From a virus: DNA of 64,000 nucleotides. The DNA is taken from positions 1-64,000 of IMG/VR virus record IMGVR_UViG_3300043777_000365; one strand, written 5' to 3'. The notes below the pieces were generated by a model that searched no databases, was not told where the DNA came from, and was given only the letters and a program-made list of their open reading frames with translations. Of the stretch, positions 4,255-55,780 are shown one piece after another. The position numbers and the translations under genes were made by a program. The stretch's first letter is position 1. Every line of letters begins with the position of its first letter.

Positions 4255-5048
4255 CCTCCACCTTCACTCTTGCTCCACCTTCACTCCGATTCGTTTGCCA
4301 TTACGACCCGTCGGCATCGGTGGCGAGGTGCGTGCTGCGTCCCGCCTCCACCTTCACTCCGATTCGTTTGCCATTACGACTCTTTCTGTTCGAATCCCGT
4401 TCGTCCTCCGGTCCTCCGGACTCACCATCCTCCACCTTCACTCCGATTCGTTTGCCATTACGACCCAGGAAGCGCGTGCGGGCCGCCGTGGGCCACGAGC
4501 CTCCACCTTCACTCCGATTCGTTTGCCATTACGACCGAGCAGCTGGTGCGCGAGGTCCGGCAGGCGAGCATCCTCCACCTTCACTCCGATTCGTTTGCCA
4601 TTACGACGCTCGGCGCCGTGGTCGACGCGCTCAAGGTTCTGAACCTCCACCTTCACTCCGATTCGTTTGCCATTACGACCACAAGGATGCGTTCTCGGAG
4701 GCGTACCACTCGTCGCTCCTCCAACTTCACTCCGATTCGTTTGCCATTACGACTTCCGCCGCACCGGGGACCTCCGCCGGCCCCAAGCTCCGCCTCCACC
4801 TTCACTCCGATTCGTTTGCCATTACGACCGAATCCAAGCGTTTCGTCACTTGGGCAAGTGCCCGCCTCCACCTTCACTCCGATTCGTTTGCCATTACGAC
4901 TTCGCGGTGCTCGCTTTGATCAAAGCGAGAGCACACCTCCTCCACCTTCACTCCGATTCGTTTGCCATTACGACCGTTGTCATGCCATCGGGAAGCTGGC
5001 GGGTTGGGGCGTCCTCCACCTTCACTCCGATTCGTTTGCCATTACGAC
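4255..5048 (-). CRISPR. CRISPR array: 11 x 36-bp repeats (GTCGTAATGGCAAACGAATCGGAGTGAAGGTGGAGG on minus strand), 10 spacers of 35-39 nt plus one of 48 nt included, and a truncated terminal repeat
   Basis: Repeats start at 4272, 4345, 4429, 4500, 4572, 4644, 4718 (1 mismatch), 4793, 4865, 4939 and 5013; partial repeat at 4255-4269. The degenerate end is on the left, so the leader is on the right. Confidence 0.98.
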
Positions 5049-35422: not shown

Positions 35423-35896
35423 TTACTTGATGCCGGCCCACTTCTTCAGCGGGTTGGTCGACGCGCCGGCCCCGCCAGGAGACTTGCCGGGGACCGGGAG
35501 GCCAGCCGCGGCGGCCGCCGCCCGGTCGCTGCTCGAGGGGCCGTCGCTGCCCATCGGGTTGCTCGACCCCGAGGAGCTGGAGCCGGACGAGCCGGAGCTC
35601 CCGCTCGAGGACCCGCTCGACCCCGACGACGAGTCGCTCGAGTCGCTCGAGTCGCTCGACGAGGAGGACGAGTCGCTGCTGGAGCTGCTGTCGCTCGAGT
35701 CCGAGGACGACGAGCTGCTGTCGCTCGAGTCGCTGGAGCTCGAGGATGAGCCAGAGGAGCCGCTCGACCCGCCGCTGGAGTCGGAGCTGCCGCTCGAGGA
35801 CGAGTCGCTGGAGCCCGAGGAGCTGGAGCCAGACGAGCCCGAGCTGGAGCCTCCGGACGAGGGGAAGGGCATGGGGTCGAGCGGTGCGTTTGCCAT
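35423..35896 (-). CDS. Ser/Gly/Asp low-complexity protein
   Basis: About 100 aa of SSG/SSD repeats. Confidence 0.55.
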   Translation of the reverse strand: MANAPLDPMPFPSSGGSSSGSSGSSSSGSSDSSSSGSSDSSGGSSGSSGSSSSSSDSSDSSSSSSDSSDSSSSSDSSSSSSDSSDSSDSSSGSSGSSSGSSGSSGSSSSGSSNPMGSDGPSSSDRAAAAAAGLPVPGKSPGGAGASTNPLKKWAGIK

Positions 35897-40434: not shown

Positions 40435-41193
40435 ATGAAGAAGCTCGATTTGTCCGGTGAGAAGTTCGGTCAGCTCGTGGTCCTCGGACCCGGTGAGACG
40501 TTGCCCAACGGAAAAACGACCTGGCAATGCGGATGCAAGTGCGGCCACATCCGCGACTTCCGTACGAACGACCTCCGCAGCGGGAAGACCACCTCGTGTG
40601 GGTGCGCGAAGGTGGAGCGGATGAGGTCCGTTGGCCTCTCGCGCAAAGGCAAACCAAGGCACGACATCGCACTCGACCTTGTCGGGAGAACGTTCGGTCG
40701 CCTCGTGGTGCTCGAGCGGGGCCCGAACAACTCGCACAACAAGACGACGTGGATCTGCCGTTGCGTCTGCGGCGCGGAGCGCGCTTTTCTCACTGCCCTC
40801 TTGGTGAGCGGCAAGACGAGCTCGTGTGGATGTCGCCGAACAGACAGCGCCGTGCAAATGGGCACCGCGAACCTCCGACATGGTCACGCCAGACACGAAA
40901 CCATCGTTGTCGACAAACACACTCCCGAGTACGCCGTTTGGAGAGGCATGAAGGCCCGCTGCTACAACCCAAGAACTTGGAACTTCCGCGACTACGGTGG
41001 CCGAGGGATCCGCATCTGCGAGCGGTGGCTGAACTCGTTCGAGAACTTCCTCGCAGACGTTGGGCCCCGTCCCTCGGCAAGCCACACCATCGATCGGTTC
41101 CCCAACAACGATGGGAATTACGAACCGGGGAACGTCCGGTGGGCGACGAAGCGAGAGCAAGCGAACAATAGGCGACATAGAAGCTCCCGTTAG
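40435..41193 (+). CDS. HNH homing endonuclease with duplicated N-terminal CxCxCG domains
   Basis: MKARCYNP..YGGRGI..CERW..FENF..D.GPRP..TIDR..NDGNYEPGNVRWAT; TATAAT 7 nt upstream. Confidence 0.92.
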   Translation: MKKLDLSGEKFGQLVVLGPGETLPNGKTTWQCGCKCGHIRDFRTNDLRSGKTTSCGCAKVERMRSVGLSRKGKPRHDIALDLVGRTFGRLVVLERGPNNSHNKTTWICRCVCGAERAFLTALLVSGKTSSCGCRRTDSAVQMGTANLRHGHARHETIVVDKHTPEYAVWRGMKARCYNPRTWNFRDYGGRGIRICERWLNSFENFLADVGPRPSASHTIDRFPNNDGNYEPGNVRWATKREQANNRRHRSSR

Positions 41194-43478
41194 TTCGCCA
41201 GGTTGACGTTGACGCTGTCCCCGATTGTGGTATCCAAGACTATATCGTCCATCGACGGGATGGTCTGCACGAGGATGGTCGCGCGCCACAAGCCCAGCGT
41301 GGTCGGGGCCACCCCGCCGGGCGGGGCGAGGTTGGGGGTCTTCGTGTCGAGGTAGAAGCCGTTGATGCGCTGGGAGTTGCTGTTCGTCGGCGACAGCAGC
41401 CCGATGAGGAACTGCTGGATGACGAGCGTCGCGGCGGCCTGCCGGTTGATGGTCATCAGCTGCTTGACGAACGGCTGGAGCGCGATGGCGAGCGAGTCCT
41501 GGATGTAGTCCGCCATGCGGCGGCGGTGGATGGGCGCCTGGCTCGGGTAGCTCGCGTAGAGCACCGAGGTCACCCCGCTCTGGAACTGCATCACCCCGTT
41601 GGTGAACGTCGGGGCCGCGATGCCGTTGGCCTTGAAGTTGATGTAGTCCTGCAGCGCGAACGGCACGCCGTTGTTCACGGCGGTGCCGGCGCTCGTCACC
41701 TCGAAGCCGACGGCCCCGGTCGTGTAGCTCGTGAGCTGCCCCGGGTTCTGCTCCGGGTTGAGCTGGCTGAGGATGCTCGCCATGAACCCGTCCGAGCCGA
41801 TGCTCGCCGTGCCGATCGCCTGCCCCGGGATGGAGAAGCCCGTGCCCCCGGCCGACCCCACCGTCTGGATGGCGCTGATGGTCGTCGTGACCCCGGGGTA
41901 GTTGTAGATGATCCGCTCCGTCGTGTACGCGCCGACGCCCGGCTGCAGCGTGGAGCTCTCGGCCTGGGAGGCGAGGGTGCCGATGGGGGGGCGGATGCAC
42001 GCCATGCGGCCCACGACGCCCGCGCCGCCACCGCTGCCGACGGTGTTCACGTTCTGGAGCAGCTGGTTGCGCACGCTGTTCGACTGGCGAGCGCTCCAGA
42101 GGATGTTGATGCCCTGGGCGACCTGGTTGGACGACTGCAGCGTCGCGAGGATGGCCGTCGTGTAGGCGGCGTCGATGGCCGACTCGGAGAGGGCCGCCGT
42201 CGTGGGCAGGAGGTTCGTGCACGCGAAGCTGTCGAGCAGGATCGGGTTCGTGACCTGGGTGATGGTGCCGGCCGTGGCGACGGTGGAGCCGGAGTTGTCG
42301 TCCTGGGCGAAGCGGATGACCACCGGGTAGGGGCCGGCGCCGGACGGGGTCACCCCGGTCTGCGTGGCCGAGGTCACGTTGACGTCCTGCATCGTGACGT
42401 ACACGTTGCCCGACGGCACCTGGACCACCGTGCCCGCGGGGATGGTCCCCGCGTTGCCGACGGCGGCCGCGTCGGTCACCCCGATGGGGAAGCTGAAGCC
42501 GGTGGCCGTGGTCGCCGCGGTGAGCGCGATCGAGTCGGTCGCCGGGGTGGAGCTGGTCCGGTACATGCGGATCTGCCCGGTTGGGAGCAGCTCCACGTTG
42601 GCGGTGGAGACGGCCGCGTGCACGACCGTGTTGAGCTCGGCGGGGGCCACCGCGCTGATGTTCGAGACGTTGCCCGTGCCGTTGGTGGTCGCCGCGGTGA
42701 GCCCGAGGTCGGTCAGGGCGGAGCCGCCCGCGCCGATGATGATCTGGCCGCCGGTGCCGGCCTGGATGCCCGTGAGCTTGAGCTGGCCGGCCGAGTTGGA
42801 CGCGAACGTGAACCCGGCGAACGAGTTGATGCGCGAGATGACGTTTGCGATGGTCGTGTCGCCCGTCTGGAACACGACGGTGAAGGCGACGTTCTGGTCG
42901 ACGGTGAACGTTGCCGACAGCCCGGCCGTGATGCTGCCGAAGGCCGCGCCGGTGCCGGTGACGGTCGCCGCCACCCCGGTGAACGTCGCGTTGACCGCGC
43001 CGCCGCCGTCGATGGAGATGGCGAGCACCTGGCCGGTGAGCAGCGAGTAGCGGAACTGCGAGCCGCCGACGAGGTTCGCCTGCCGGGTGAACTGCACCGT
43101 GCCGACGCTCGTGTTCACGCGGCAGATGCAGAGCTGCGCGAACGCCTTGCCGTTGAGCTGCGCCGCCCCGTTGCCGTTCCAGTACTCGGCGAGCACCGCC
43201 CCGTCCGCGAAGCGCTGGCGCGCGCAGGGGTTGTTGCCGACCGTGTTCCCGTACGTGTAGCCGAACGTGCCGAAGGTGCTCTTCATCTGGGTGAAGGAGG
43301 TCACCTGCGTCACCGTGTTGAACGGCCCGTTCTCGAACTCGCCGACGATGCAGGCGAGCCCCGTGTTGACCCCGATGACCTGCTGCGGGGGCGTGTTGTC
43401 GATGATGTCGACGCCCTCGATCTGGGTGAGAACCGTGTTCCCAGGGTCATAGGTCCAGCGCCTCACAATGTTGGGCAT
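41190..43478 (-). CDS. Tail sheath protein
   Basis: GV.IID..P, IVGEFENGPFN, C-terminal IHRRRMADYI. Confidence 0.88.
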   Translation of the reverse strand: MPNIVRRWTYDPGNTVLTQIEGVDIIDNTPPQQVIGVNTGLACIVGEFENGPFNTVTQVTSFTQMKSTFGTFGYTYGNTVGNNPCARQRFADGAVLAEYWNGNGAAQLNGKAFAQLCICRVNTSVGTVQFTRQANLVGGSQFRYSLLTGQVLAISIDGGGAVNATFTGVAATVTGTGAAFGSITAGLSATFTVDQNVAFTVVFQTGDTTIANVISRINSFAGFTFASNSAGQLKLTGIQAGTGGQIIIGAGGSALTDLGLTAATTNGTGNVSNISAVAPAELNTVVHAAVSTANVELLPTGQIRMYRTSSTPATDSIALTAATTATGFSFPIGVTDAAAVGNAGTIPAGTVVQVPSGNVYVTMQDVNVTSATQTGVTPSGAGPYPVVIRFAQDDNSGSTVATAGTITQVTNPILLDSFACTNLLPTTAALSESAIDAAYTTAILATLQSSNQVAQGINILWSARQSNSVRNQLLQNVNTVGSGGGAGVVGRMACIRPPIGTLASQAESSTLQPGVGAYTTERIIYNYPGVTTTISAIQTVGSAGGTGFSIPGQAIGTASIGSDGFMASILSQLNPEQNPGQLTSYTTGAVGFEVTSAGTAVNNGVPFALQDYINFKANGIAAPTFTNGVMQFQSGVTSVLYASYPSQAPIHRRRMADYIQDSLAIALQPFVKQLMTINRQAAATLVIQQFLIGLLSPTNSNSQRINGFYLDTKTPNLAPPGGVAPTTLGLWRATILVQTIPSMDDIVLDTTIGDSVNVNLAN

Positions 43479-43536
43479 CGCGAAAGACTCCTACGGGGCG
43501 AGTTCGTCCGGGTGGACGGTTCCGCGGCTCCCTGGG

Positions 43537-43587
43537 GTCCACGCTGGTCTCGATCGACCTGTCCGCCGTGGTAGCGGTGTTCGGGGG
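43537..43587 (-). ncRNA. Conserved structured 5' UTR motif, copy 1 (sheath)
   Basis: Near-identical to 55662-55711; two hairpins plus a potential pseudoknot. Confidence 0.65.
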
Positions 43588-43694
43588 CTTGGCTTGGGGG
43601 AGAGAGTCGCGCGCGGAGGCCGGATCCGTCAAGGAGCCCACCTTTGGAAACCCGGGTTTCCAACCCCGCCCCCGAGCGCGGCATGATGCTCCCC

Positions 43695-44159
43695 ATGAGC
43701 ACCAACGGGATCACCACACGGGACAAGAAGATGCCTCTGGAGGCCTACGTCCTCGCGCACGCGTGCGGCCGGCTCGTCGTCGGGGCGGCGTGGCAGGAGG
43801 ATGAATGGCAGCCCATCCCGCCGACCATCGACCTGACCGGGCCGCACCTGCACCGGGCGCCCCTCGTGCTCTTCCCCGCCTACGACCTGCGGGTGGACCT
43901 CGTGCGCAACGGCCCCGGCATCGCCCAGAACTTCCAGGTGCTGCCGCTCTTCAACCTGCTCAACCCGGGGTCGGTCCGGGTCCTCCCCGACGACTGGCGC
44001 ATGTCGATCATGCACTGCACCGGCGAGGAGCGGCGCGTGCTCGCCGCCCAGCTCGAGAACGTGCAGGTCCTCGTCGCCGACATGCGCGCGTCGCACGAGC
44101 GGGCCACCGCCGAAGGCGGCGGCGGCGGGGCCCCCCGCATCATCGTCCCGGGCCGCTAG
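43695..44159 (+). CDS. Hypothetical accessory protein
   Basis: 7 nt after CATGAT, downstream of the palindrome at 43644. Confidence 0.65.
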   Translation: MSTNGITTRDKKMPLEAYVLAHACGRLVVGAAWQEDEWQPIPPTIDLTGPHLHRAPLVLFPAYDLRVDLVRNGPGIAQNFQVLPLFNLLNPGSVRVLPDDWRMSIMHCTGEERRVLAAQLENVQVLVADMRASHERATAEGGGGGAPRIIVPGR

Positions 44160-45034
44160 ACCGCCTCGTCCTCGGCGGTGGAGGCGCTCGCGTAGGCGGG
44201 GGTCTCCACGTCGACGGTGACGTTCGGCGTCATGAGCGCGTACGCGACGAGCCGCACGACGTTGAAGTCGAGGCGGACCTTGTGCACGGCCGAGCGCCGG
44301 TTGCGGATGGCTCCGTCGTCGCGCTCCCACTCCGACCCGGTCAGCGTGAAGCGCGCCGTCTCCCCGTAGTAGTCGGGCATCACCAGGAGGGTGCCGCCGA
44401 CCCCGTCGGCCGGGACGAGCATCTGCTCCACCATGCTCATCAGCCCGCGCAGGAGGCCGAGCTGCGACGCGTAGACGTGGAGGGTGACCTCCTCCGAGTG
44501 CGTCCACATCGGCACGACCACCGTGCCCGCGCCGTACACGTCGACGGTCGTGGCGTCCGGGTTGGGGGTGAAGCCGTGCGGCGTCTTCTCCACCGGCCCA
44601 CCCGCGCACGTGATGGACGGGTAGACCATGTCGGTCTCGGGGTCGGGGTCGTCGACGTAGAAGTTGCCCGGGGGCAGCAGCCCGGAGGCGGCCGGGGGCA
44701 GCCCCGGCTGGGCGGACGGGTCCACCTTGTTGCCCCGCCGCCGGTAGGGGACCTCGGTCAGGTACCGCCCGAGCGCCTGCAGGGCGCACGTGCGCCCGTC
44801 CACCGGGGCGCTGCCGGGGTCGGCGATGAGCGGGAGCACGTTGCCGAGCAGCGTCCCGGAGGAGGTCTGGAACTGGTACTGGGCCCCCTGCGCGAGGATC
44901 TGCGAGTGGCCGGTGGGGACGGTGGCCGGCACGAGCGGCTGCGGGGGCATGCGCGCGGGGGGCCGCGGCGGCTGCGCGGCCGAGTCGTAGGGCCAGCGCG
45001 GGTCGCGCCTCGGCGGGTTGTAGGTCGGGCGCAC
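44156..45034 (-). CDS. Tail terminator/neck protein (putative)
   Basis: YPSIT motif; upstream of the sheath; GTG 7 nt after TAAGCT. Confidence 0.55.
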   Translation of the reverse strand: MRPTYNPPRRDPRWPYDSAAQPPRPPARMPPQPLVPATVPTGHSQILAQGAQYQFQTSSGTLLGNVLPLIADPGSAPVDGRTCALQALGRYLTEVPYRRRGNKVDPSAQPGLPPAASGLLPPGNFYVDDPDPETDMVYPSITCAGGPVEKTPHGFTPNPDATTVDVYGAGTVVVPMWTHSEEVTLHVYASQLGLLRGLMSMVEQMLVPADGVGGTLLVMPDYYGETARFTLTGSEWERDDGAIRNRRSAVHKVRLDFNVVRLVAYALMTPNVTVDVETPAYASASTAEDEAV

Positions 45035-45087
45035 GCAGCAGAGCTTACCTTGGAAACCCGGGTTTCCAAGACGGCATGATGGGACCC

Positions 45088-45468
45088 ATGCCGAAGAACC
45101 CACCGGATGACATCTTGGGCGAGGTGATGTCGGGGGCTTGCCTCGCGACGTACGAAGGGTTCGTCCGGTGGGACGCTGCGCTCGACGACCGGGCCGTCCA
45201 CCACTGCGGCCACTGCATGGGGCACTTCGTGTACGTGCCGAAGGGAGCACCCCGCCGGATGAGCGACGCGTCCAACGTCGAGGGCTTGCGCATCCACGAC
45301 CTCGGCGACGAGTGCTTCGTCGTGACCAGGCGGCACCGGATGGTCCACTTCTCCCTCACCGACGAGCTGCTCGGCCGCAGGTCCCCGGTCTTCGAGGATT
45401 CGGACATCGTCTCCGTGACCACGACGCTGGCTGCGGCCGAGGCCGCGCTCAGGCTCGCGTCCCTCTAG
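45088..45468 (+). CDS. Hypothetical accessory protein
   Basis: 7 nt after CATGAT, next to the palindrome at 45050. Confidence 0.6.
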   Translation: MPKNPPDDILGEVMSGACLATYEGFVRWDAALDDRAVHHCGHCMGHFVYVPKGAPRRMSDASNVEGLRIHDLGDECFVVTRRHRMVHFSLTDELLGRRSPVFEDSDIVSVTTTLAAAEAALRLASL

Positions 45469-45489
45469 CGCACCTTCTTGAGCTCCCGC

Positions 45490-46107
45490 TCAGAGCGAGA
45501 GTCGGAGCTGCGCGTGCCTCTCGATGTACTCGGCGAGGGCCCGAAGCTTGCTCGGGCTGCCTTTCATGTGGCCCTCGGCGAGATTGCAATGCGTGCACAA
45601 GAATCCACGGACCTGCCTGGTTACGTGATCATGGTCGAGGTGAGTACCCCTCCCAGGCTTCAGCTTGTCTCTACAAGCCGCGCATCGTCCCTTCTGTTTT
45701 TCCAAGAGCCTCGCTTGGTCCTCCTTGGATATCCCGTACACGATCTTCCGCTTGGTGGCGGCTTGGCGCTCCGTGTGTCCAGGGCGAGCTCGGTGGGCAG
45801 TCGCTGCACGTTGGGCGCAATCCAAACAGTTGCCCAACCACGTAGTCCCCTTTTTAGGCTGCCCTCTTCGCAGCGATCCGCACTTCGAGCATGACCTGAG
45901 AACACCTGGCGGAGGTCGAGGCTTCATCCCTTTTTCCCTCCGCTCTTGCTCCCGTTCCGCTCGGACCTTCACGGCGTTGGCCGGCACCTTGTACCAAGCT
46001 CGGCTCCAAGCCTTCCGGTACTCGCGGATGCAAGGTGAACAATGTCCTTGCGAGTCGCGCTCACTTCCACCGCACTTGCCGCACGGATGTCGTCTACGAT
46101 CACTCAT
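45490..46107 (-). CDS. Endonuclease VII-like (His-Me finger) endonuclease, probably a free-standing homing endonuclease
   Basis: YGIS..Q.GRCAAC..HLDHDHVT..VRGFLCTHCN..EG; N-terminal Zn fingers; lower GC. Confidence 0.88.
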   Translation of the reverse strand: MSDRRRHPCGKCGGSERDSQGHCSPCIREYRKAWSRAWYKVPANAVKVRAEREQERREKGMKPRPPPGVLRSCSKCGSLRRGQPKKGTTWLGNCLDCAQRAATAHRARPGHTERQAATKRKIVYGISKEDQARLLEKQKGRCAACRDKLKPGRGTHLDHDHVTRQVRGFLCTHCNLAEGHMKGSPSKLRALAEYIERHAQLRLSL

Positions 46108-46173
46108 CGTCGCCTCTCATCCAGGTGATGGTCGGGCCCGGAGCGTTAGTAGCGCTGCCGGGCTCACTTCATT

Positions 46174-46725
46174 TTACTTCACCTTCGCCAACTCCCGCTC
46201 TACTTCCTCTTTGATGAACGTGGGCACCCTCTTTTCCGCCTTCTCCAAAATGCGAAGACCGGTACCTCCGAAGATGCCCTTGGCCTGCATGCTCTTGGCG
46301 ATAGCCCAGGCTATGGACGTTGCCTCGGCCTTGCTGGCCTTCACTTGTCGAACTCTCCCACTCGCGCTGGTAACGGTTCTCCCGCCCAAGCCTTTCCGTT
46401 GGACCCACTCTGTGAGCGCAGCGATGAGCTTACGACCGATCTTCACATGACCAGGCCGGACTCCTAAATCCACAAACGGTGCGTGCGGCGACGAGTTTTG
46501 GACGATGACCTCACCCTCGCTCTTCACCGGCTGCACGCGCCAGCCAGCTCGGTAGGCCCCCTTGTCGACGGGCATCCGCGAGCCGAAGGACGGGATGACG
46601 TCGGCGACGATGTGCTCGACGGTCTTGTGGCCGGCCGCGACGAGGCCCCGGAACGCCGCCTCGCGGAGCCCGCCCTTGATGTCCTCGAGCATCACCCCGG
46701 CGTCCTTGAGCGAGTAACTCTTCAC
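46174..46725 (-). CDS. HK97 gp10-like neck/tail completion protein
   Basis: PVDKGAYRAGW..N.SPHAPFVDLGVRPG. Confidence 0.7.
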   Translation of the reverse strand: MKSYSLKDAGVMLEDIKGGLREAAFRGLVAAGHKTVEHIVADVIPSFGSRMPVDKGAYRAGWRVQPVKSEGEVIVQNSSPHAPFVDLGVRPGHVKIGRKLIAALTEWVQRKGLGGRTVTSASGRVRQVKASKAEATSIAWAIAKSMQAKGIFGGTGLRILEKAEKRVPTFIKEEVERELAKVK

Positions 46726-46742
46726 CGAGGCATCATAAGGGC

Positions 46743-47261
46743 ATGCCCAACAACGTCGAGCACCCGTACCGACCCGAGCCCGTCGTCCAGCTCAGCTATC
46801 CCGGCCGAGCCCAGCTCGGGCTCATGGCCGCGGCGATCCTCGTGCTCGTCGGTTGGTGCGCGCTCGAGATGAACAAGGTCGGGCGACTCGAGCACCGGCT
46901 GGACGAGATGGCCGCGGCGCAAGCGGCGTGGCTGGCCAACTTCCCGCCGACGTCGTCCCACCCCTTGGCGATGACCGACGGCCTGGGGGTCCTGCACCTC
47001 GAAGAGGCCGCGGCGTTCAACAAGGAGGCCCACCCGACGAGCGGGGTCATCCTCTGGGTCACCGACGACGGAGACTACGAGACGCTGCACCTCCGGGGCC
47101 CGGGCAACGGCGGCGACATCTTGTTCACGCTCGCCAAGGGTGGGGTGCGGTCGGCTTCGCCGACCGACCTCGTCATGGGACCACCGTTCATCCCGGGGCA
47201 GGCCCTCAACCTTTCCTTCCAAACTCAGGGTGGGGCTCAGCCCTCGTCGCCCAGCCCGTAG
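46743..47261 (+). CDS. Hypothetical membrane protein
   Basis: One hydrophobic helix; divergent from the neck gene. Confidence 0.55.
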   Translation: MPNNVEHPYRPEPVVQLSYPGRAQLGLMAAAILVLVGWCALEMNKVGRLEHRLDEMAAAQAAWLANFPPTSSHPLAMTDGLGVLHLEEAAAFNKEAHPTSGVILWVTDDGDYETLHLRGPGNGGDILFTLAKGGVRSASPTDLVMGPPFIPGQALNLSFQTQGGAQPSSPSP

Positions 47262-47857
47262 GCGCTCGACCCGTCGCGCGCGGGGTCCTCCGAGATCCTC
47301 TCGAGCACCAGCCTCCACTGCACGCTGGTCTCGTCGAGCGCGGGCTGGGCCGCGAGCCGGTACTTCTGCCGCAGCGGCAGCCCCTCGTGGCGGCCGTCCT
47401 CGACGATCTCGTAGAAGAAGCTCACCGGCTGCGGGACGCGGTCGGCCGGGTGCGGCCCGCACGGGAGCAGCTGGACCGTCGGGCTCGACGCGTTCACCTC
47501 CTCGAACACCCCGGCCTTGACGCTGTAGAGCCCCGTGAGCTGGCTCTCGGTGAGGGTGGCGCTCACCTCCTCGAGCCTCACCGACCCCGTCGCCAGGTAG
47601 CCGGCCCCTCCCGCCTGGAACCCGACGGAGTCGAGCCCGACGACCTTGGGCGTGGGCAGGAGCTCGAACCGGTCCACCTCGTACGGGGTCCCGTCCCCGC
47701 GCTCGTTGCCGCCCCACCGCACCCACACGAGGAACACCCGGCGCGAGCGGGCCCCGAGCCGCACGGCCATCTGGCGGATGCGGTCGACGGGGCGGGCGAG
47801 CCGGTTGGCCAGGCTCCGGGTCGCCGCGCGCGGGGTGAGCGGCTTGGGCTCGGACAT
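47237..47857 (-). CDS. Head closure/head-tail joining protein (putative)
   Basis: Position in the neck module; ATG 6 nt after TACGT-like TACGCT hexamer. Confidence 0.5.
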   Translation of the reverse strand: MSEPKPLTPRAATRSLANRLARPVDRIRQMAVRLGARSRRVFLVWVRWGGNERGDGTPYEVDRFELLPTPKVVGLDSVGFQAGGAGYLATGSVRLEEVSATLTESQLTGLYSVKAGVFEEVNASSPTVQLLPCGPHPADRVPQPVSFFYEIVEDGRHEGLPLRQKYRLAAQPALDETSVQWRLVLERISEDPARDGSSAYGLGDEG

Positions 47858-48228
47858 CTCAGAAGCGTACTGCGTCGTCGGACAGCTTGCTCCTCAACGT
47901 CGCCCGGAGGCATGCCCAGCAGCCAGCGACCCACCCGACGAACGTCGCCGAGTAGTACTCGCGGAAGGGGACCTTCCAGCCGAGCGAGGTCTTCACGCCG
48001 GCTCCAGGTCGACCGGCTCGTCCGCCGGCGGCTCGTGGGCCGCCTGGGGCTCCTCGAGCTTCTCGAGCGGGACGGGCTTGGGCTTCTGCCGGCCTTGGAC
48101 CATGTCGCCGAGCTCGGAGCAGAGCCGGACCATCGCGGCGGTCACGTCGTGCCCGACCCCGACCGCGTCGACGCCCTCGACGCGGGCCTCGTGCTGCCCG
48201 TGCTCGTTCTTGGTGAAGACGACCTCGC

Positions 48229-48597
48229 TCACTTGGGGCTCGCTTTCTTGGCGGCCTTCTTGGCCTGGACGAACGGCGCCGGCTGGTACGCGGCCCCGGC
48301 CGGCGGGACGGTGCCTGCGTCGGCCTGGGAGGCCTCGAAGGACGCGACCACCTTCTCGAGGTCGGGGACGAGCGCCTCGACGAGGCCGCAGCCGACCTGG
48401 ACGTCGGCCGCGACGATGCCCACCGGGGTCCCGGCCGGGATGACGCTGCCGGCGAGGGCGGCCGAGATGCAGGCCGTGTCCGCGTCGTTGAAGATCGCGT
48501 CCGCCTCCGCGACCTCCTTCGCCGTGCAGCCCATCCACGCCCCCCAAGCGACCACCAAGAGCACGCACGCCGCCATGAAGCTCACCACGGTTTTCAT
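48229..48597 (-). CDS. Putative lipoprotein
   Basis: Signal peptide MKTVVSFMAACVLLVVAWGAWMGC. Confidence 0.55.
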   Translation of the reverse strand: MKTVVSFMAACVLLVVAWGAWMGCTAKEVAEADAIFNDADTACISAALAGSVIPAGTPVGIVAADVQVGCGLVEALVPDLEKVVASFEASQADAGTVPPAGAAYQPAPFVQAKKAAKKASPK

Positions 48598-48637
48598 CTG
48601 GACCTCTTTCCTGAAGGTCGGGGTATAACAGCCCCGT

Positions 48638-49036
48638 TCAACCCACGCGAGCGTTGATGCCGCTTGCACCGATGCCGCCGAACCTCGCGTCGAACGGGTT
48701 GCGGTAGCAGCTCATGATCTGGAGCATGTCGTCGACGAAGAAGATGTACCGCTGCACGAGCTGCTCGAACTGCTGGGGGTTGATCTCGATGTCCCCGACC
48801 TTCGAGGCCACGAGGGTGTCCGTGTCGTCGAAGATGATCGCGTAGACCCGGTCGCACCGGTCGAGCCCCTCTCGGAGCAAGAACTCCGCGCTCGGGATGA
48901 TGGCGTCCATCGCCGCCTCGAGGATGAAGAACGGCTCCATCGCGGCCGGGTTCCCCAAGAAATACGTCTGGGCCGCGCTCACGTTGGGCCAGCCACCGTG
49001 TTTCCGAACCCTTGCCTTCTCTTCCGGGGTGAGCAC
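48638..49036 (-). CDS. Head-tail adaptor/connector (putative)
   Basis: LTPEEKARVRKHGGW; SKVGDIEIN; 132 aa. Confidence 0.55.
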   Translation of the reverse strand: MLTPEEKARVRKHGGWPNVSAAQTYFLGNPAAMEPFFILEAAMDAIIPSAEFLLREGLDRCDRVYAIIFDDTDTLVASKVGDIEINPQQFEQLVQRYIFFVDDMLQIMSCYRNPFDARFGGIGASGINARVG

Positions 49037-49071
49037 GGGACGAGGCTACCACGCGCGGCATGATGGGCCGC

Positions 49072-49887
49072 ATGGACACCCCGACCTCGTTCCGCCGCCA
49101 TCTCCTCGACCACGGTTACCTGAAGCTCGTGGACGCTTGGGGGCGAGACGGGCTCGAGGAGGCGGTCGGCGAGGAGTCGATCATCGCGGCCGCGCGCATG
49201 TCGACGGGCAAGGGCTTCCTCGGGTGGGGTAAGTCGACATGTCGACTTTGTCGGTGGGAAGGTCAACCGGCGGACTTCCAAAGAGGCTGCCCAGGTTGTT
49301 CTCACGAAAAGACCTATGACTATCAACCTGGCGATGAGAAGCTCCTGCGCTTCCTCTACGAGAACAAGCACGCGACCCCGTTCGAGATGGCCGGAATCAC
49401 CGTCGAGGTCATGGCTCCCATCTTCGTCTTCCGGGAATGGCACCGCCACCGCACACAATCTTTCAATGAAATGAGCGCCCGCTACATCCCGCTCCCCGAC
49501 GTGAACCACGTCCCCTCGGTCGATCGCCTGATGCTCAACTCGAAGACGAACAAGCAGGCGGGGACCGTTCAAGGCGCAGAAGAGCTGACCCCGGGGGTCG
49601 CCGAGCTCGACAGGCGGGAGCTCGAGGAGGAGTGGGCGAGGCAGGAGGCGTTCTACCAACGTCGGCTGAAGCGCGGGGTGCCGAAGGAGCTCGCGCGCAC
49701 GCACATCGGGACGGGCCGCTACTCGCGCATGAGGGCGAGCGCGAACCTCCGCAACTGGCTCGGCTTCGTGACGCTGCGCTCCGCCCCCGCCGCCATGTGG
49801 GAGATCCGGATGTACTCGGACGCGCTCGGCGAGCTCGTCGGGCAGCTCTTCCCGCGCACGTGGGCCCTCTTCCAGGAGAGGCGATGA
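49072..49887 (+). CDS. thyX: Flavin-dependent thymidylate synthase
   Basis: HATPFE, PIFVFREWHRHR..SFNEMSARY, KELAR, NLRNW..F..LR..A.WEIR. Confidence 0.95.
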   Translation: MDTPTSFRRHLLDHGYLKLVDAWGRDGLEEAVGEESIIAAARMSTGKGFLGWGKSTCRLCRWEGQPADFQRGCPGCSHEKTYDYQPGDEKLLRFLYENKHATPFEMAGITVEVMAPIFVFREWHRHRTQSFNEMSARYIPLPDVNHVPSVDRLMLNSKTNKQAGTVQGAEELTPGVAELDRRELEEEWARQEAFYQRRLKRGVPKELARTHIGTGRYSRMRASANLRNWLGFVTLRSAPAAMWEIRMYSDALGELVGQLFPRTWALFQERR

Positions 49888-50047
49888 GCACCTGGAACGA
49901 CGAGCAGTCGGCCAACTGGATCGTGGTGGGCCTCGCGCTCTTCCTGTTCGTCGCGACCTCGTGCGTGCAGTGCGCCGGCCCGTGCTCCTGGCTCATGTGG
50001 GAGCCGGTGACGGACCTGCCCGCCCGCTGCCTGCCTGGGACGGGTCG

Positions 50048-50479
50048 CTAGAGCGAGTCGAACCGCCTCGGCGCCGCCTGCGGCCGCAGTGGGGCGATCG
50101 GCGGCGGGGGAACGGCCGACGGGGCGGCGAACGCCCGGACGATGCTCGGAGGCGGCAGCGCTGACTGCGGCACCCCGGCGTCCGCCGGCTGCACCGGCAC
50201 CGTCAGCACCTCGTGCTCCCGGGTGTAGCCCTCGACGTACTGGCGCAGGCGCTCGAGGTCGTCGTGCTGCTGGCGCACCTCGGCCTGCGTCTCGAGGATG
50301 CTCTTGGTCAGCTCGAGGTAGCCGGCGCGCGCCCCTTCCTCGGGCTTGAACACCGCCCCCACCGCCGTCACCAGCCCGGCCGCCGCGAGCAGCAGCGCCG
50401 CGTACCCGCGCAGGCTCGACGAGCGCGCGTGCCGCAGCGCCTCGAGCGCCGCCTCCTCCGCCTCCAAGACCTCGCCCAT
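50048..50479 (-). CDS. Membrane-anchored coiled-coil protein
   Basis: TM helix followed by coiled coil; ATG 7 nt after TAGGCT. Confidence 0.5.
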   Translation of the reverse strand: MGEVLEAEEAALEALRHARSSSLRGYAALLLAAAGLVTAVGAVFKPEEGARAGYLELTKSILETQAEVRQQHDDLERLRQYVEGYTREHEVLTVPVQPADAGVPQSALPPPSIVRAFAAPSAVPPPPIAPLRPQAAPRRFDSL

Positions 50480-50736
50480 GCCACCGAGCCTACCCCAAGC
50501 CCCGGCGCGAGCATTGCTAGCTCGCCCTCCCGGAGGCACGAAACCAAGATGGTCAACCACCGGCAGCAGTGGCAGGCAGAGGTGCGCGCGCGGCAGCTCA
50601 GGCTCGCCAAGTGCGAGCAACTAGGGCACTTGTGGGACGCGGGGTTCTTCGGGAGGGAGGTGCGGTGCGACCGGTGCGGCGCCTGCGCCGACCCCCCGGC
50701 CGTCGGCGAGATGCCTCCCGCCGTTGGCGAGATGCC

Positions 50737-51964
50737 TTAGCTCCCGACCACCCCGCCGCCCGACTGCCACGTGAACTCGCCCACCGGGCGCTTGGCCCGG
50801 CAGTGGGGGCACGTCAGCTGCCCGATCACCCCTGGGTTGCGGGCCATCTCCTTGGCCACGTCCTGGGCGAGCACCGACAGGATGCCGCACTGCTTGTGCA
50901 CGACCGCGTCACGAACGGGCCGGGGGCCGGCCTGGGCTGGCTTAGGCGCGCCTGCGGCGTCGGCCTGGGGCTTTGCCGCGTCCGGGGCCGTCGGGGCTTC
51001 CTGGGGCGGGCTGGGGGCGGCGGGCGGGGGTGCTTTCGGGTCGGCCATGGGGGGACTGTACACCAGCGTTGGAAGCCCGGGTTTCCAACCCGCGCGGCGG
51101 GACGCGGGGCGGGTCCGCGTGCACGACCACCCAATCGTTCGCGACCTCGCTCCACGCGACGTCCTTGCGGAACGCCCAGGGTGGGTGCTCCGGGAAGCTC
51201 ACGCGGGCTTGGGCCCGGGGCAGGTGCCTGGTCGGTCGGGGAGGTCGCCCGCGCAGAGGCAAGGTGGCCGATGCCCGACCTTTAGGCAGCACGGGCCGCC
51301 GCACGCGAGCTTCGTCCTGCACCACGGCCCCTCGCGGTTGTCGGTGGCGGGGGTGGGCCTCGGCCTCGTCGGGTCGGTGCTCATCGGCCGGTCCTCCGGA
51401 TCTCCTCCAGGATGGCGCGGGCGCGACGCACCATGGCGGCCTGGTGGAGGTCGCTCATCGACCGCACCTCCATGCGGACCTCGGCCTCGCCGAGGTTGCG
51501 GACCGGACTCCGTTGGTGTTCGCCACCATGCTTGTGGCAGAGGAGGTCCCCCACCGAATCGTCGGGGTAAACCTCGGCCGGCTCCTGGCAAAAGACGCAG
51601 GTGGCGAGGTTCCGGTTGTTGTGGAGGAACGCGAGCGCGGTCATCTCCGTGTTGAGGTCGAGGCTCCTGCGCAGCTCGTCGCTCATCGGGAGAGCCCTCG
51701 ACGCCGCAGCTCCTCGACGGCGTCGTCCACCTCGCGCTGCAACCGCCTGGCGAAGTTCCCGAGGTGGTCCGGGTTGAAGTCGTCCTCCGGCACACGGATG
51801 ACCGCGCTGCACTCGTGCCGGGCCATGCGCACCTCCACGACGGCCGCGTGGATCATGAGCGTCAAGAGGACCACGGCACATTCCCGTGGGGTCCAGTTCT
51901 TCGACCCAGACTCGAGCTGCACGACGAGCCTCAGCTTGGAGCAAACCTCGTTCACGGTCGGCAT
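50737..51964 (-). other. Cluster of small hypothetical ORFs (50737-51048, 51199-51384, 51381-51686, 51683-51964)
   Basis: Coupled ORFs, several with CxxC. Confidence 0.5.
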
Positions 51965-53253
51965 CAGACCAGCTCCGGGTTCTTGAACAGCTCCGCGAAC
52001 GTGAACGGTGGCGCGCTGACGGCCGGGTTCCACTGCTGCATCGCGGCGCAGTACTTCGCCATGATGAGGTCCTGCGACTCGGGGGCGAGCCCGGACCACC
52101 TCCGCAGCTCGTCCCCCTCCAGCGTCGACGCGAGCCGCAGGCGCAGGTCGGGGCACGTCGGCAGGTGCTGCTCGCCGGGGATGCACCGGCAGGTCGACGA
52201 CTTGCCGTGCCGGTCGGCAAGAACGGGTCCACCATCTCCAGTCCGGGTTGTGATCGTGTTCATCGCCTCCAGGTTCTCGGGGGTGTTGGGCTTGGCGACG
52301 TAGGTCTTCACCGCCTCCTCCACCTGCCGCTGGACCACGTCCTTCAAAGCTCGCTCGGCCTTCTCGAACCTGCCCCTCCAATAATCCTCGTTCGTCGCGT
52401 GGAAAGCCGCCGTCTCGACCCAGTTGGTCGCGAACTTCTCGAGCATCGCCACGTAGTCGGCCGCCGGCCCGGGGATGTCCTTGAGGTTGGGGAACCACTT
52501 GGGCCGTAACGCCTCGACGATCTCCTCGGCCATCTTCCTCCGGTCTCGGTCGATGTCCGCCTGCGGCTTGTCGAGCTGGCCGCTCGCGCTCTCGTCGACG
52601 AGGTATGCCGGGTATGCCGTGCGGCCGATCCCGCAGCGGTTGCACACCAGCATCTTCCCGTCCTCCGTCGACCAGTCGTGCTGCTCGCACGGTCGCGACG
52701 GCTGCCTTTCAGGCTGGCTGACGTCGCCCCGCGCGAGCGAGTTTCCGTAGCCCTCGGCCCGACGACGCGCGGGCTCCCGGGCCATGACCTCCTCGAACTT
52801 CTCCTTCCAATACCTCGCCCCCTTCCAGTCACACTCGGGCACGTCGACGACGGTGGTCGCGTCCCCCATGTCGACGTGGACGGTGCACGGTGGCCCGCTT
52901 CGCCCCTCTAGGTAGAGGGTCACCCGATGGGGCATCGGGGTGCCAGCGTCCACCGCGTAGAGGGTCACCCGATGGGGCATCGGGGTGCCAGCGTCCACCG
53001 CCCCCAGCGGGATCGGGACGCTGCCGACGATCCTCCCGTCGAGCGCGACGTGCACCGCGGGCCCGTCCACCTTCGCCGGCTCCTCCCGCGGGTCCAGGTG
53101 GCGGAACAGCACCCACGTCCCCTCGAGCAGAGACGGCTGCCCCGTCCCGTCGAGCCCCGTCACGTACTCGAGCCCGTCCGACCTCGCGTCGTTCAGGAAC
53201 TTGACCCTCGCCTCCCGAGAGGACCCGACGAACTGCTTGTACACGTAACCCAT
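51964..53253 (-). CDS. Hypothetical mosaic protein containing a 15-aa tandem duplication
   Basis: Starts MGYVYKQF; AVDAGTPMPHRVTLY occurs twice. Confidence 0.55.
   Translation of the reverse strand: MGYVYKQFVGSSREARVKFLNDARSDGLEYVTGLDGTGQPSLLEGTWVLFRHLDPREEPAKVDGPAVHVALDGRIVGSVPIPLGAVDAGTPMPHRVTLYAVDAGTPMPHRVTLYLEGRSGPPCTVHVDMGDATTVVDVPECDWKGARYWKEKFEEVMAREPARRRAEGYGNSLARGDVSQPERQPSRPCEQHDWSTEDGKMLVCNRCGIGRTAYPAYLVDESASGQLDKPQADIDRDRRKMAEEIVEALRPKWFPNLKDIPGPAADYVAMLEKFATNWVETAAFHATNEDYWRGRFEKAERALKDVVQRQVEEAVKTYVAKPNTPENLEAMNTITTRTGDGGPVLADRHGKSSTCRCIPGEQHLPTCPDLRLRLASTLEGDELRRWSGLAPESQDLIMAKYCAAMQQWNPAVSAPPFTFAELFKNPELV
52912..53001. repeat. Perfect 45-bp tandem duplication
   Basis: 52912-52956 is identical to 52957-53001. 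Confidence 0.9.
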
Positions 53254-53366
53254 TGCCTGCCTCCGACCCTGAAATAGGAAAGGCCGGCCGAGCAAACCGT
53301 TAGCGCCCAGGCCGGCCTGGCGCCCGGACCATCCGGCCGCCTCCCCCATCATGCCGCGAGGACCGC

Positions 53367-53762
53367 TCAGCCCGCGGCCTCCGCCGCCTCGGCCGCCTGG
53401 TCGATCTCCTCGAGCTTCACCCCCTGCCGGCGGATGGACGGGATGTCGAAGTACCTCTCGTCGAGCTCCTTGCCCTCGTTGATCTTGAACTGCCGGCCGC
53501 CGCGGCCGACGACGAGCTGCACCATCCCGTCCTGGTTCCGGGGCACCTTGGTCACCCGGTACTTCCTCGGGAGGGGGACGGCGTCGACCCGCTCCTGCCG
53601 CTCCTGCTGGAAGGTGCGCTGCACCTCCTGGCGGGCGAGCGGGGGCAGCGGCTGGCGCGGGCCCCCGTTCATCCCGGAGCCGGACAGCTCCTGGTCGTCG
53701 GGGTTCCCGCTGCCCCCGCCCTCCTCGTACACCTGGTTCGGCTTGCGCTCCGCTCTCGGCAT
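53367..53762 (-). CDS. Hypothetical protein downstream of the capsid gene
   Basis: RBS GGAGG; 131 aa. Confidence 0.6.
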   Translation of the reverse strand: MPRAERKPNQVYEEGGGSGNPDDQELSGSGMNGGPRQPLPPLARQEVQRTFQQERQERVDAVPLPRKYRVTKVPRNQDGMVQLVVGRGGRQFKINEGKELDERYFDIPSIRRQGVKLEEIDQAAEAAEAAG

Positions 53763-53810
53763 GTTCGTGGCCTCCGGAGGACGAAGCTACCACGCGGCAT
53801 GCTGGTGGGC

Positions 53811-54053
53811 ATGGGAGATGTCCACGCGAGCGTCTGCATCTTCTGCCTCCGGCCCGAGGGCGACGCCCGCGCCTGGTGCCCTGACAACCCCGGCCGCGGC
53901 TGCACCTACGGGCTCGCCCACGAGCACCCGGCCGGGCCGAGGCCGAAGCCCAAGACGGCCACCGTCGCCAACGCGAGGTGCCTCAAGTGCGGGCTCCACC
54001 CCAAGAACCCGGCCTACCGCGTCATCGTGTGCGCCCACGAGCACGCGGCTTGA
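53811..54053 (+). CDS. Small Cys/His-rich accessory protein
   Basis: 7 nt after CATGCT; two CxxC motifs. Confidence 0.5.
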   Translation: MGDVHASVCIFCLRPEGDARAWCPDNPGRGCTYGLAHEHPAGPRPKPKTATVANARCLKCGLHPKNPAYRVIVCAHEHAA

Positions 54054-54171
54054 ACCAAGGGTTTGGAAACCCGGGTTTCCAAAAAGCACGAGGGTCCGGA
54101 GGCCGTGGCCGCCGAGCCCTCGTCCGGCCATGCGCCGGTTGCCTAGCTCAGACAGAAGCTAAGTAGCTATG

Positions 54172-55578
54172 TCACGTGGCACTTTGTAGGACCACGGCCC
54201 GCTTGAAGAGGGCCGTGCTGGTCGTCGCCCCGAGGTCCGTCGGCACCGGGAAGCAGGTGCTGATGGACCAGGTCGCGCGGACCATGTCCTGCAGTCGGTC
54301 GATCGGGCTCGCGATGACCAGGCGGATGCGGTCCGTCTGGATCGAGATGCCCTGGTTGACGACGTCGAACTCGCCCACCTTGCCCGTGACGCCGGCCTCC
54401 GAGACGTACTGGTTCTCGTTGACCCAGCGCTCGTAGAGGGCGCCGCGGCCCGTGATGAGGGTCTGCGAGATCTGCACCCCCGTGTAGTTGATGATCTCGC
54501 TGCCGAGCTCCTGCGCGTACAGCGCCGGCTGCCCGGAGACCGTGAGCGTCTGGTTGCCCGTGTTGATGGGCGCCGGCGACTCCGTGTTCATGAAGAACTT
54601 GATGCCGACCTGCGGGACGGGGAAGCCGTTGATGTAGCTCTCCGACTGGGGCAGGGCGGTGTAAAGGCGCTGGTAGGCCGGGTCCGCGAACAGCTGGGCC
54701 GCGACGTTCGGGGCCAGGTGCGCGTGGTAGAAGCCGTCCTCGTGCGGCTGGACGTTGTTCGCCCGGAGCACGGTGGCCGCGTTCAGGAAGTCCTGCATCA
54801 CGACGATGTCGGCGCTGCTGATGGCGTCGATGCTGTTGCCGCCGCCCGACCGGATGACCACCGGGGCGTTGTTGCTGTAGATGGGCGTGCGGACCGCGAG
54901 CGCCGAGCCGATCTGCGCGGACAGCTGGAGGATGCCCGGGCCGTTCAGCGGGTCGGCCGGGTTCAGGCTCGTGTACCCGATGACGTTCGCCGTCACCGTC
55001 ACCGTCGGGCTGACGATGATGCTGATGGGCAGCGGGTTGGCCGAGGACACGCCCACCGGGCGCACCGTGGAGCCCATCTGCACGACCGTCGTGAACCCGT
55101 TGAGCGACGCCACGTTGAGGACCGTGTCGGTCGTCAGCTGGGTCGCCGTCGTGAGCGTCTGCCCGGACAGGTACGCCTGGAAGAGCGCGTCGCGGGAGAC
55201 CCGGTTCACCGTCTGCCCGGCCTGCAGGCCGAGCTGCTGCAGGTTCCTCATGAACTGGTCGGCGTTCGACCAGACCGAGGTCGGCATGTGCGTGTCGATG
55301 CCGCTGCCGTAGCGCAGGAGGTTGACGTACCACTGCTCGTACTGGAGCGCCTGCGGCTGCGGGTCCTGCCCCGCGATGAGCGGGGTGATGGCCGGCGCGA
55401 GCAGGCTCGGGCGGGTCTCGATGGTCTGCACGCCGGTGTGCGCCGGCCACTCCTCGGCCATCGCCTCGGTGCGGTACAGGAGGGCGGGGTAGAGGGCGTC
55501 GTGGAACGCGCGCTCGAGCAGGCCGGTCTGCACCAGCTGGACGATCGACGGGGGGATGCCGAGGATTACACCGGCCAT
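54172..55578 (-). CDS. Major capsid protein
   Basis: 468 aa downstream of a scaffold-like gene; LERAFHDALYP, LRANNVQP..DGFY, FKRAVV; long structured UTR. Confidence 0.8.
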   Translation of the reverse strand: MAGVILGIPPSIVQLVQTGLLERAFHDALYPALLYRTEAMAEEWPAHTGVQTIETRPSLLAPAITPLIAGQDPQPQALQYEQWYVNLLRYGSGIDTHMPTSVWSNADQFMRNLQQLGLQAGQTVNRVSRDALFQAYLSGQTLTTATQLTTDTVLNVASLNGFTTVVQMGSTVRPVGVSSANPLPISIIVSPTVTVTANVIGYTSLNPADPLNGPGILQLSAQIGSALAVRTPIYSNNAPVVIRSGGGNSIDAISSADIVVMQDFLNAATVLRANNVQPHEDGFYHAHLAPNVAAQLFADPAYQRLYTALPQSESYINGFPVPQVGIKFFMNTESPAPINTGNQTLTVSGQPALYAQELGSEIINYTGVQISQTLITGRGALYERWVNENQYVSEAGVTGKVGEFDVVNQGISIQTDRIRLVIASPIDRLQDMVRATWSISTCFPVPTDLGATTSTALFKRAVVLQSAT

Positions 55579-55661
55579 GGTTGTGGACTCCTAACTTCGG
55601 GATGAACGACGACGAGAGAGGGCTTTCGCTCCTCGATCCGCTCGCTCACTTCGCCCCGGGA

Positions 55662-55711
55662 GTCCACGCTGGCCGCTGGGGGCCTGTCCGCCGTGGTCGC
55701 GGTGTTGGGGG
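55662..55711 (-). ncRNA. Conserved structured 5' UTR motif, copy 2 (major capsid)
   Basis: Matches 43537-43587 with a compensatory base-pair change. Confidence 0.65.
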
Positions 55712-55780
55712 TCCGTGCTCTTACGTTGGCGCCAGAATGCGGGCAGCCCCGCGGCTAAGTCAAGCGCCGGGGTTGCCCCG

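Follow-up and report, generated by a model that had tools for sequence, protein, structure and literature searches.

To our knowledge very few regulatory RNAs are known to act on phage structural genes; here we describe a candidate, a pseudoknotted motif in the leaders of the major capsid and probable tail sheath genes in a 64,000-nt stretch of an uncultured virus (IMG/VR record IMGVR_UViG_3300043777_000365, positions 1 to 64,000; hereafter the window, meaning the whole stretch analysed). Several described systems come close to it. The preQ1-I riboswitch (RF00522), an H-type pseudoknot of very small size whose linker is A-rich, acts on the ribosome-binding site (RBS). The put RNAs of phage HK022 are cis-acting, occur as two copies per genome just after promoters, and form two stem-loops that act on RNA polymerase; they were reportedly first recognised through compensatory differences between the copies. 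In the Com/mom system of phage Mu, the ribosome site of a late gene lies hidden in a leader structure and is opened by a factor. The leader of phage T4 gene 32 carries an H-type pseudoknot through which translation is controlled by a bound protein, as stated in PMC10690425.

An earlier note on the window had described a shared motif at 43537-43587 and 55662-55711, and on the minus strand it reads as described there: hairpin 1 is CCGC/GCGG, its loop CCACG is complementary to the downstream CGUGG, and we verified these pairs singly. We call hairpin 1 P2 and the loop-to-downstream pairing P3. An outer closing helix, P1, encloses both and was absent from that description. The two copies are composed as follows.

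55654..55711, minus strand: motif copy of the capsid leader, all pairs checked base by base
CCCC (within 55711-55707) with GGGG (55657-55654), minus strand: P1 of the capsid copy
CCGC (55702-55699) with GCGG (55691-55688), minus strand: P2 of the capsid copy, covarying in relatives
CCACG (55696-55692) with CGUGG (55668-55664), minus strand: P3 of the capsid copy, covarying in relatives
GGCC (55684-55681) with GGCC (55674-55671), minus strand: lineage-specific hairpin 2 of the capsid copy
43530..43587, minus strand: motif copy of the sheath leader, all pairs checked base by base
CCC (within 43587-43583) with GGG (43532-43530), minus strand: P1 of the sheath copy
CCGC (43577-43574) with GCGG (43566-43563), minus strand: P2 of the sheath copy
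CCACG (43571-43567) with CGUGG (43543-43539), minus strand: P3 of the sheath copy
GGUC (43559-43556) with GACC (43549-43546), minus strand: lineage-specific hairpin 2 of the sheath copy

Exactly two copies, both on the minus strand, occur in the window and in the whole source record (IMG/VR; 86,753 nt, completeness rated at 93%). The 24-mer AACACCGCKACCACGGCGGACAGG matched twice in the window at up to three mismatches vs. 0 matches in 100 shuffles, and the 14-nt core CCACGGCGGACAGG, at up to one mismatch, found nothing in the 86,753-nt record beyond the two copies, whose stretches are 81% identical across 57 nt (repeat family D13). With a generic pseudoknot parser, chance knots in the GC-rich flanks scored as well as the true one; pairing within the two copies is therefore not significant by itself, and support for the fold comes from relatives. 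A generic pseudoknot descriptor search of the leaders was dropped as evidence on the same ground.

The motif resembles preQ1-I in topology only (in both, a hairpin loop reaches over an A-rich linker to pair with a strand downstream), and differs from it in having the extra enclosing helix P1, in giving no covariance-model match and in its genes, which were capsid or sheath genes in 21 of 21 matches, not queuosine or preQ1 genes. Like the T4 gene 32 pseudoknot, it is of the H-type and lies in a phage 5′ leader; gene 32, however, encodes an autoregulating single-strand DNA-binding protein, and the two RNAs bear no sequence relation. As with the put RNAs, two copies in one genome follow promoters (here, promoter-like boxes) and show compensatory differences, whereas the motif is a knot with complementarity to the RBS and is single-copy in most relatives.

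Conservation of the motif in capsid leaders

Capsid-homologue loci were taken from JGI metagenomes (12), IMG/VR (the best 80 of 109 relatives) and GTDB genomes (3); two of these 95 loci had too little upstream sequence, leaving 93 with at least 150 nt. The motif was identified in 90 of the 93 (69 of 71 unique leaders), instances beyond the 44-leader alignment described below being found by eye, their limits set by a parser biased towards pairing. The exceptions were L229 and L245, which share one sequence in which P2 is recognisable and P3 degenerate (26.9 bits with covariance model R1), and L248, the most distant capsid homologue. GC content among the capsid loci ranged from 0.46 to 0.73. Between motif and start codon lay 46–196 nt, with a median of 73.

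Independently, we ran a motif-first scan of IMG/VR, using a single common core variant. All of its 21 matches, from 20 stretches, had the same orientation to the gene: a capsid homologue began 58–161 nt downstream in 20 cases and a sheath homologue at 59 nt in one. The R1 covariance model (class A), built from 44 leaders, gave 45 matches at E ≤ 0.01 in 63 capsid loci and none at that threshold in 853,080 nt of unrelated viral contigs, where the best score was 21.2 bits; in each of five relatives that were 97–100% complete (89–101 kb) it matched once, in the capsid leader. Comparison of these leaders shows that uncultured tailed phages of a large clade have kept the motif ahead of their capsid genes.

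The window copies share 13 of 14 core nucleotides with class-A leaders L158, L166 and L230, and depart from class A in carrying C instead of the usual A before P2, which gives P2 a fourth pair, in a P3 of five pairs, and in having 19 nt with hairpin 2 in place of the short A-rich linker. The nearest relatives, L157 (capsid 82% identical), L168 (73%) and L167 (63%), keep P2 and P3 with other linkers; L167 has CCACC/GGUGG where the window has CCACG/CGUGG. The earlier note had also pointed to a compensatory U-A to C-G change in hairpin 2. That difference is real (n = 2), but hairpin 2 is not a feature of the family: it is an insertion of ~15 nt within the linker between P2 and P3, seen in no copies other than the window's two, and its absence from L157, L167 and L168 marks it as lineage-specific. 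With filters off, R1 scored the sheath copy at 7.5 bits and found no match to the capsid copy, while L157 (15.8 bits) and L168 (14.7 bits) both lay within noise; because R1 gives no supporting score, membership of the window copies in the family rests on homologous position, core identity and topology.

Some leaders carry additional elements. Extra tandem motif copies precede the capsid gene in L197 (764-828, 884-951) and L277, and L246 has copies at 32-89 and 886-952, one of them before a scaffold-like gene of 268 amino acids. By a loose pattern, half the leaders (36 of 72) have a GCGAAG-like hexamer 7–56 nt after P3 (e.g. L164, L183, L213, L235; window 55654-55649); in several it forms the tip of a short hairpin whose loop is GAA or GAAG, and may be a second, optional leader module. 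A 27-codon frame in the window (55649-55566, minus strand) begins, by eye, with GUG 5 nt after the P1 3′ strand, crosses the capsid start codon out of frame and ends 13 nt past it; it probably arose by chance in GC-rich DNA. By eye only, no conserved small upstream frame was seen after the motif in class-A leaders.

Fold and covariation

For pair counts we used A5, a sequence-only MAFFT alignment of 44 leaders chosen by sequence pattern; alignments mixing variants (A3, A6, A7) shift the P2 5′ strand or the P3 3′ strand by one or two columns and were excluded. Because the selection pattern fixes the first two P2 pairs, these are uninformative in A5. P2 was paired in 100% of cells, its third pair being CG in 34 leaders, UA in 7, and AU, GC and UG in one each. 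P3 was paired in 97.2% of cells, with one pair distributed as AU 20, GC 19 and GU 3 and another as CG 31, AU 10 and UG 1. The covariation score of A5 was 0.301 vs. 0.136 for shuffles (0 of 500 reached 0.301), and at most 0.083 in slid controls where partners were shifted by 1–3 columns; RNAalifold predicted P3 from A5 unaided. Hairpin 1 and the loop-to-downstream pairing of the earlier note thus both covary in homologues and, since P2 and P3 cross, the fold is an H-type pseudoknot. Across P2 and P3 the A5 cells comprised 297 Watson-Crick pairs, 6 G-U and 1 A-C, the excess of G-U over A-C fitting an RNA read from the strand of the gene. The 72 unique instances, a set that leans towards pairing, present 18 distinct P2 duplexes and 25 distinct P3 duplexes.

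The outer helix P1 is highly diverse in sequence and variable in distance, and MAFFT leaves it unaligned (44.7% paired in A5); it was judged instead by the complementarity of cognate vs. non-cognate flanks, which came to 13.04 vs. 10.55 in 54 de-duplicated leaders (0 of 5000 permutations). Taken over homologous leaders, these comparisons show that P1, P2 and P3 are maintained by compensatory change.

The whole motif, of ~35–60 nt, is a conserved aptamer-like domain, combining covarying helices with conserved junction bases as riboswitches generally do. The linker spans 5–19 nt, A-rich and mostly GUCAACA-like; the linker, an ACG before P2 and a CGG at the P2 3′ end are near-invariant among phages whose capsids are only ~50% identical. 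Unpaired bases as constant as these point to a particular tertiary fold or a particular partner.

Complementarity to the ribosome-binding site

Complementarity links the 3′ half of the knot to the RBS of its own leader more than to those of other leaders, as shown here by permutation of leaders; the earlier description lacked this relationship. The features concerned in the window are these.

55576..55592, minus strand: capsid RBS, with Shine-Dalgarno (SD) sequence AGGAG at 55592-55588, GGAGUCCAC at 55591-55583 and ATG at 55578-55576
43476..43492, minus strand: sheath RBS, with SD AGGAG at 43492-43488 and ATG at 43478-43476
55659..55667, minus strand: anti-RBS segment GUGGACUCC, overlapping the P3 3′ strand, a 9-bp perfect complement of 55591-55583

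We compared the P3 3′ strand plus the next 14 nt (which include the P1 3′ strand) with an RBS window from −20 to +3. Complementarity was 14.12 to the RBS of the same leader and 12.33 to those of other leaders (0 of 2000 permutations), and 14.19 vs. 12.26 after de-duplication (0 of 5000). Two controls within the same genomes were flat: the knot 3′ segment against a coding stretch (1851 of 5000) and an upstream segment against the RBS window (3115 of 5000). Duplexes of at least 8 bp occurred in 16 of 67 cognate pairs vs. 7.3% of non-cognate pairs. Their sequences vary by lineage: GUGGACUCC with GGAGUCCAC in the window capsid leader, GGUGGAAAC with GUUUCCACC in L185, GGGCUUUCC with GGAAAGCCC in L167, and lengths of 11 bp in L237 and L251 and 12 bp in L188.

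The minimum-free-energy fold of the window capsid leader (−64.6 kcal/mol, z −2.12) forms P2 and pairs the knot 3′ half (GUGGACUCC) with the SD region (GGAGUCCAC) and the start codon; the knot-compatible fold comes to about −54.5 kcal/mol, a rough sum without a knot term. For the sheath leader the hidden-site and knot-compatible folds are equal (−40.5 and −40.2 kcal/mol).

Genes, leaders and promoter-like boxes

Both copies precede virion genes, as had been proposed, and both leaders are long, ~200 and 150 nt from predicted open reading frame (ORF) ends, against neighbouring gaps of ~11 to 76 nt or overlaps.

54172..55578, minus strand: major capsid protein gene, 468 amino acids (PHROG 1357, major head protein, E 2.3e-14)
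41190..43478, minus strand: probable tail sheath gene, 762 amino acids (ESM Atlas look-alikes; 40 homologous IMG/VR loci)
55734..55763, minus strand: promoter-like box of the capsid leader, TTGACT (55763-55758), 18-nt spacer, CATTCT (55739-55734)
43603..43632, minus strand: promoter-like box of the sheath leader, TTGACG (43632-43627), 18-nt spacer, GACTCT (43608-43603)

The capsid protein has 895 homologues at E ≤ 1e-50. The 762-residue protein had no Pfam match; its ESM Atlas look-alike clusters carry Phage_sheath_1/Phage_sheath_1C, a lead, not proof, and on these predicted resemblances it is probably the tail sheath. In the window copies the promoter-like boxes (TTGACN-18-nAnnnT) end 25 and 31 nt upstream of P2. 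A looser pattern (TTGAnn-N16-19-nAnnnT) is present in 20 of 72 leaders, and in 17 of these 20 the −10-like hexamer ends 20–39 nt before P2. A strict sigma-70 scan called no promoter at either window leader, and a terminator scan found no terminator-like site between motif and gene at either. Reads of four metagenome runs barely covered 55572-55763.

Genomes with two copies

Most relatives have the capsid copy alone. At least four phages have a second copy before the sheath gene: besides the window, G006 and G007 each carry one copy before a capsid homologue (55–57% identical) and one before a sheath homologue (58–61%), and the contig behind L269 likewise has capsid and sheath copies. Among the 40 sheath loci the motif was seen, by eye only, in L004, L005 and L006; R1, which is blind to the variant in these three, matched none of the 40. 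In the window, G006 and G007, whose copies were found without fixing the core, both copies in a genome have the same core and differ in their flanks, while the cores differ between genomes: CCACG/CGUGG, CCGAC/GUCGG and CCGGC/GCCGG, respectively. The L269 copies also share a core, but there the search pattern demanded it. Identity within and difference between genomes is, as read from these cores, the pattern of concerted evolution, which could reflect gene conversion, repeated capsid-to-sheath copying, or a shared partner that reads the sequence.

Relation to described RNA families

Rfam 15 (4227 models) gave no match at gathering score in the window or in the loci of 20 relatives. At E ≤ 10 the window capsid copy and a class-A copy drew only unrelated low scores: F6 and MIR535; a plastid 3′ untranslated region motif, mir-1224 and an internal ribosome entry site. 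With sense orientation in leaders, no Rfam match and covarying homologues, the earlier proposal of a cis-regulatory RNA of no named family holds. The motif is a new family within a known kind, the cis-acting leader RNAs, and its fold has strong comparative support.

In a full-text literature search we met neither a description of a capsid-leader pseudoknot nor a regulatory RNA acting on major capsid genes; it returned nothing beyond an unrelated review and a general catalogue of candidate viral RNAs. The catalogue (PMC10690425) reports 10,006 candidate structured RNAs of viruses (‘DNAVirus_X’) from covariation in IMG/VR intergenic regions, with 8,495 IMG/VR models, and states that five candidates are ‘typically found upstream of’ a major-capsid domain. 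That study singled out candidates within 25 nt of the start codon, whereas our motif lies 46–196 nt upstream; the motif may already be an unnamed entry there.

A proposed translational switch and its alternatives

The earlier note had offered a translational enhancer, a stability element or a protein-binding switch. The cis-regulatory core of that proposal stands; the motif probably governs the amount of capsid and sheath protein produced, and complementarity to the RBS narrows the reading towards a translational switch, for which we grade the support as moderate. The motif would be a cis-acting structured RNA at the 5′ end of capsid or sheath mRNA, folding as an H-type knot in which the P2 loop pairs with a downstream strand (P3) across the A-rich linker, inside the variable P1. 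The P3 3′ strand and the stretch that follows it, including the P1 3′ strand, would pair instead with the SD-to-start region of the same leader. With one strand serving both, the knot and the site-hiding helix would be mutually exclusive: folding of the knot would leave the ribosome site free, and opening of the knot would hide it. Because the capsid hidden-site fold is the more stable on paper, expression would need a knot that is trapped during transcription or held by an effector, and the balance might be tipped by the order of folding during transcription, by a phage or host protein, or by a small molecule. We consider the chances that the motif is such a switch in capsid and sheath leaders, operated by a still hypothetical effector, to be about even. 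The motif's exclusive tie to the two most abundant virion proteins fits control of dosage. The preQ1-I comparison parts here, since the downstream strand of preQ1-I is part of the RBS and that of our motif is anti-RBS, so that folding would turn translation on, not off. The likeness to Com/mom lies in the hidden ribosome site of a late gene, opened by a factor in the proposed switch. That system differs in its factor: the 82-residue ORF upstream of the capsid leader, considered as a Com-like zinc ribbon, was rejected by inspection because it has only three cysteines and no paired CxxC, and no Com-like gene was found next to the capsid leader.

A more specific and distinctly more tentative version, possible though in our judgement somewhat doubtful, makes the motif the sensor domain of a new class of ON-switch that gates translation of the most abundant virion proteins, capsid and sheath, in a widespread clade of myoviruses from soil and freshwater. 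As such it would act either as an orphan riboswitch or as the binding site of an RNA-binding activator that the phage encodes. An effector would hold the knot and so free a ribosome site which the knot's 3′ strand otherwise locks, and co-evolution with a partner that reads the sequence would lie behind cores that are identical within a genome and differ between genomes.

Several observations weigh against a switch. Anti-RBS pairing is short in most leaders and long in only about a quarter, with duplexes of at least 7 bp in only 24 of 67 leaders vs. 16.6% by chance pairing. The P3 3′ strand alone shows no significant complementarity to the RBS (187 of 2000), and the flank before P2 is also complementary to it (6 of 2000), so that the competing helix is not exactly defined. 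Motif and start codon are separated by 46–196 nt, a spacer that is not conserved. The sheath leader folds no better than shuffles (z −0.48), and its copy has a weaker match between 3′ half and RBS, either 6 bp including G-U or GGAC.CC, which has a single C-A mismatch. For the extra copy of L246 before the scaffold-like gene, the SD sequence GGAGG is itself the P1 3′ strand, and the logic of a switch would there be the opposite. The knot energies are rough sums that lack a knot term, and the instances beyond the 44-leader alignment were chosen by eye with a pairing-favouring parser.

A constitutive booster is rather unlikely in our estimate. Here a knot at the 5′ end would protect the message from 5′-end-dependent decay, or aid ribosome loading, without any switching, and would have been added by copying to the genes with the most heavily demanded products. 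The restriction of all 21 motif-first matches to capsid and sheath genes agrees with this, as do the closeness of the motif to promoter-like boxes (17 of 20, as above) and the confinement of the sheath copy to some lineages, as though it were an added module. A plain stabiliser, however, needs no conserved unpaired bases, and the ACG, CGG and A-rich linker are near-invariant; cognate RBS complementarity is left unexplained as well. The latter gap is shared by an element like HK022 put, whose nascent RNA would bind RNA polymerase right after the promoter and cause it to read through terminators of the long structural operons, an idea we regard as quite improbable. One or two copies per genome, just after promoter-like boxes heading blocks of structural genes, are what such an element would look like, and a 20-bp palindrome that is a possible terminator is scattered through the late region, including a site ~90 nt past the capsid stop. 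Yet no terminator-like site lies between motif and gene, and the motif is a knot within a closing helix, not two adjacent stem-loops. The metagenome-assembled genome labels of the relatives come from different phyla; together with the GC range of 0.46–0.73 they suggest many hosts, which makes a contact specific to the host polymerase less likely.

A self-cleaving ribozyme, or a nuclease processing site that trims the leader, seems very unlikely: small ribozymes often lie near phage genes, and a small knotted fold with conserved junction bases is in keeping with one, as is the long leader-RBS helix of the capsid leader with a site for a double-strand nuclease, but no Rfam ribozyme family matched even at E ≤ 10. 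We give as little credence to an operator acting as DNA, in which a regulator would bind interleaved inverted repeats. Covariation can be mimicked by inverted repeats to which dimers bind, and cores that agree within a two-copy genome and differ between genomes are as expected for a sequence-reading factor; against this, the motif has three helices of crossing topology with variable spacing (in the 5–19 nt linker and in the sequence and distance of P1), G-U is tolerated on the sense strand only (6 vs. 1), orientation to the gene was fixed in 21 of 21 matches, and the motif lies downstream of the promoter-like boxes.

The motif is compact, backed by covariation and tied to one gene family, and the proposed switch offers a concrete, testable mechanism. 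If the switch is real, it would give a handle on the timing or dosing of capsid and sheath synthesis in these phages, and a small, portable ON-switch for engineering; if the leader is only a booster, it would be a natural high-output leader for GC-rich hosts.

Other features of the window

The perfect 20-bp palindrome TTGGAAACCCGGGTTTCCAA has at least 14 copies between 11481 and 61546 of the window (e.g. 43643-43664, 54063-54082, 51068-51087). One copy stands directly upstream of the sheath promoter-like box, another ~90 nt beyond the capsid stop codon. Ahead of the capsid leaders of relatives L161 and L162 there is a similar GGAACCCGGGTTCC. The palindrome could serve as an operator, or punctuate the region in the manner of a terminator. 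An array of clustered regularly interspaced short palindromic repeats (CRISPR) at 4273-5048 comprises 11 repeats and 10 spacers of 36–49 nt. The best self-match of a spacer lies at 42026-42043 in the sheath gene, where the opening 18 nt of spacer 1 align with one mismatch (E 0.008 within this genome). We considered and rejected a CRISPR origin for the leader motif (local alignment of motif and CRISPR locus scored 22–25 vs. a background median of 24–26 for random parts of the genome) and also a CRISPR-guided element, as none of the ten array spacers matches the motif or the promoter boxes. Elsewhere, direct repeats with a period of ~39 nt occupy 35519-35845 on the plus strand (families D5, D6 and D19).

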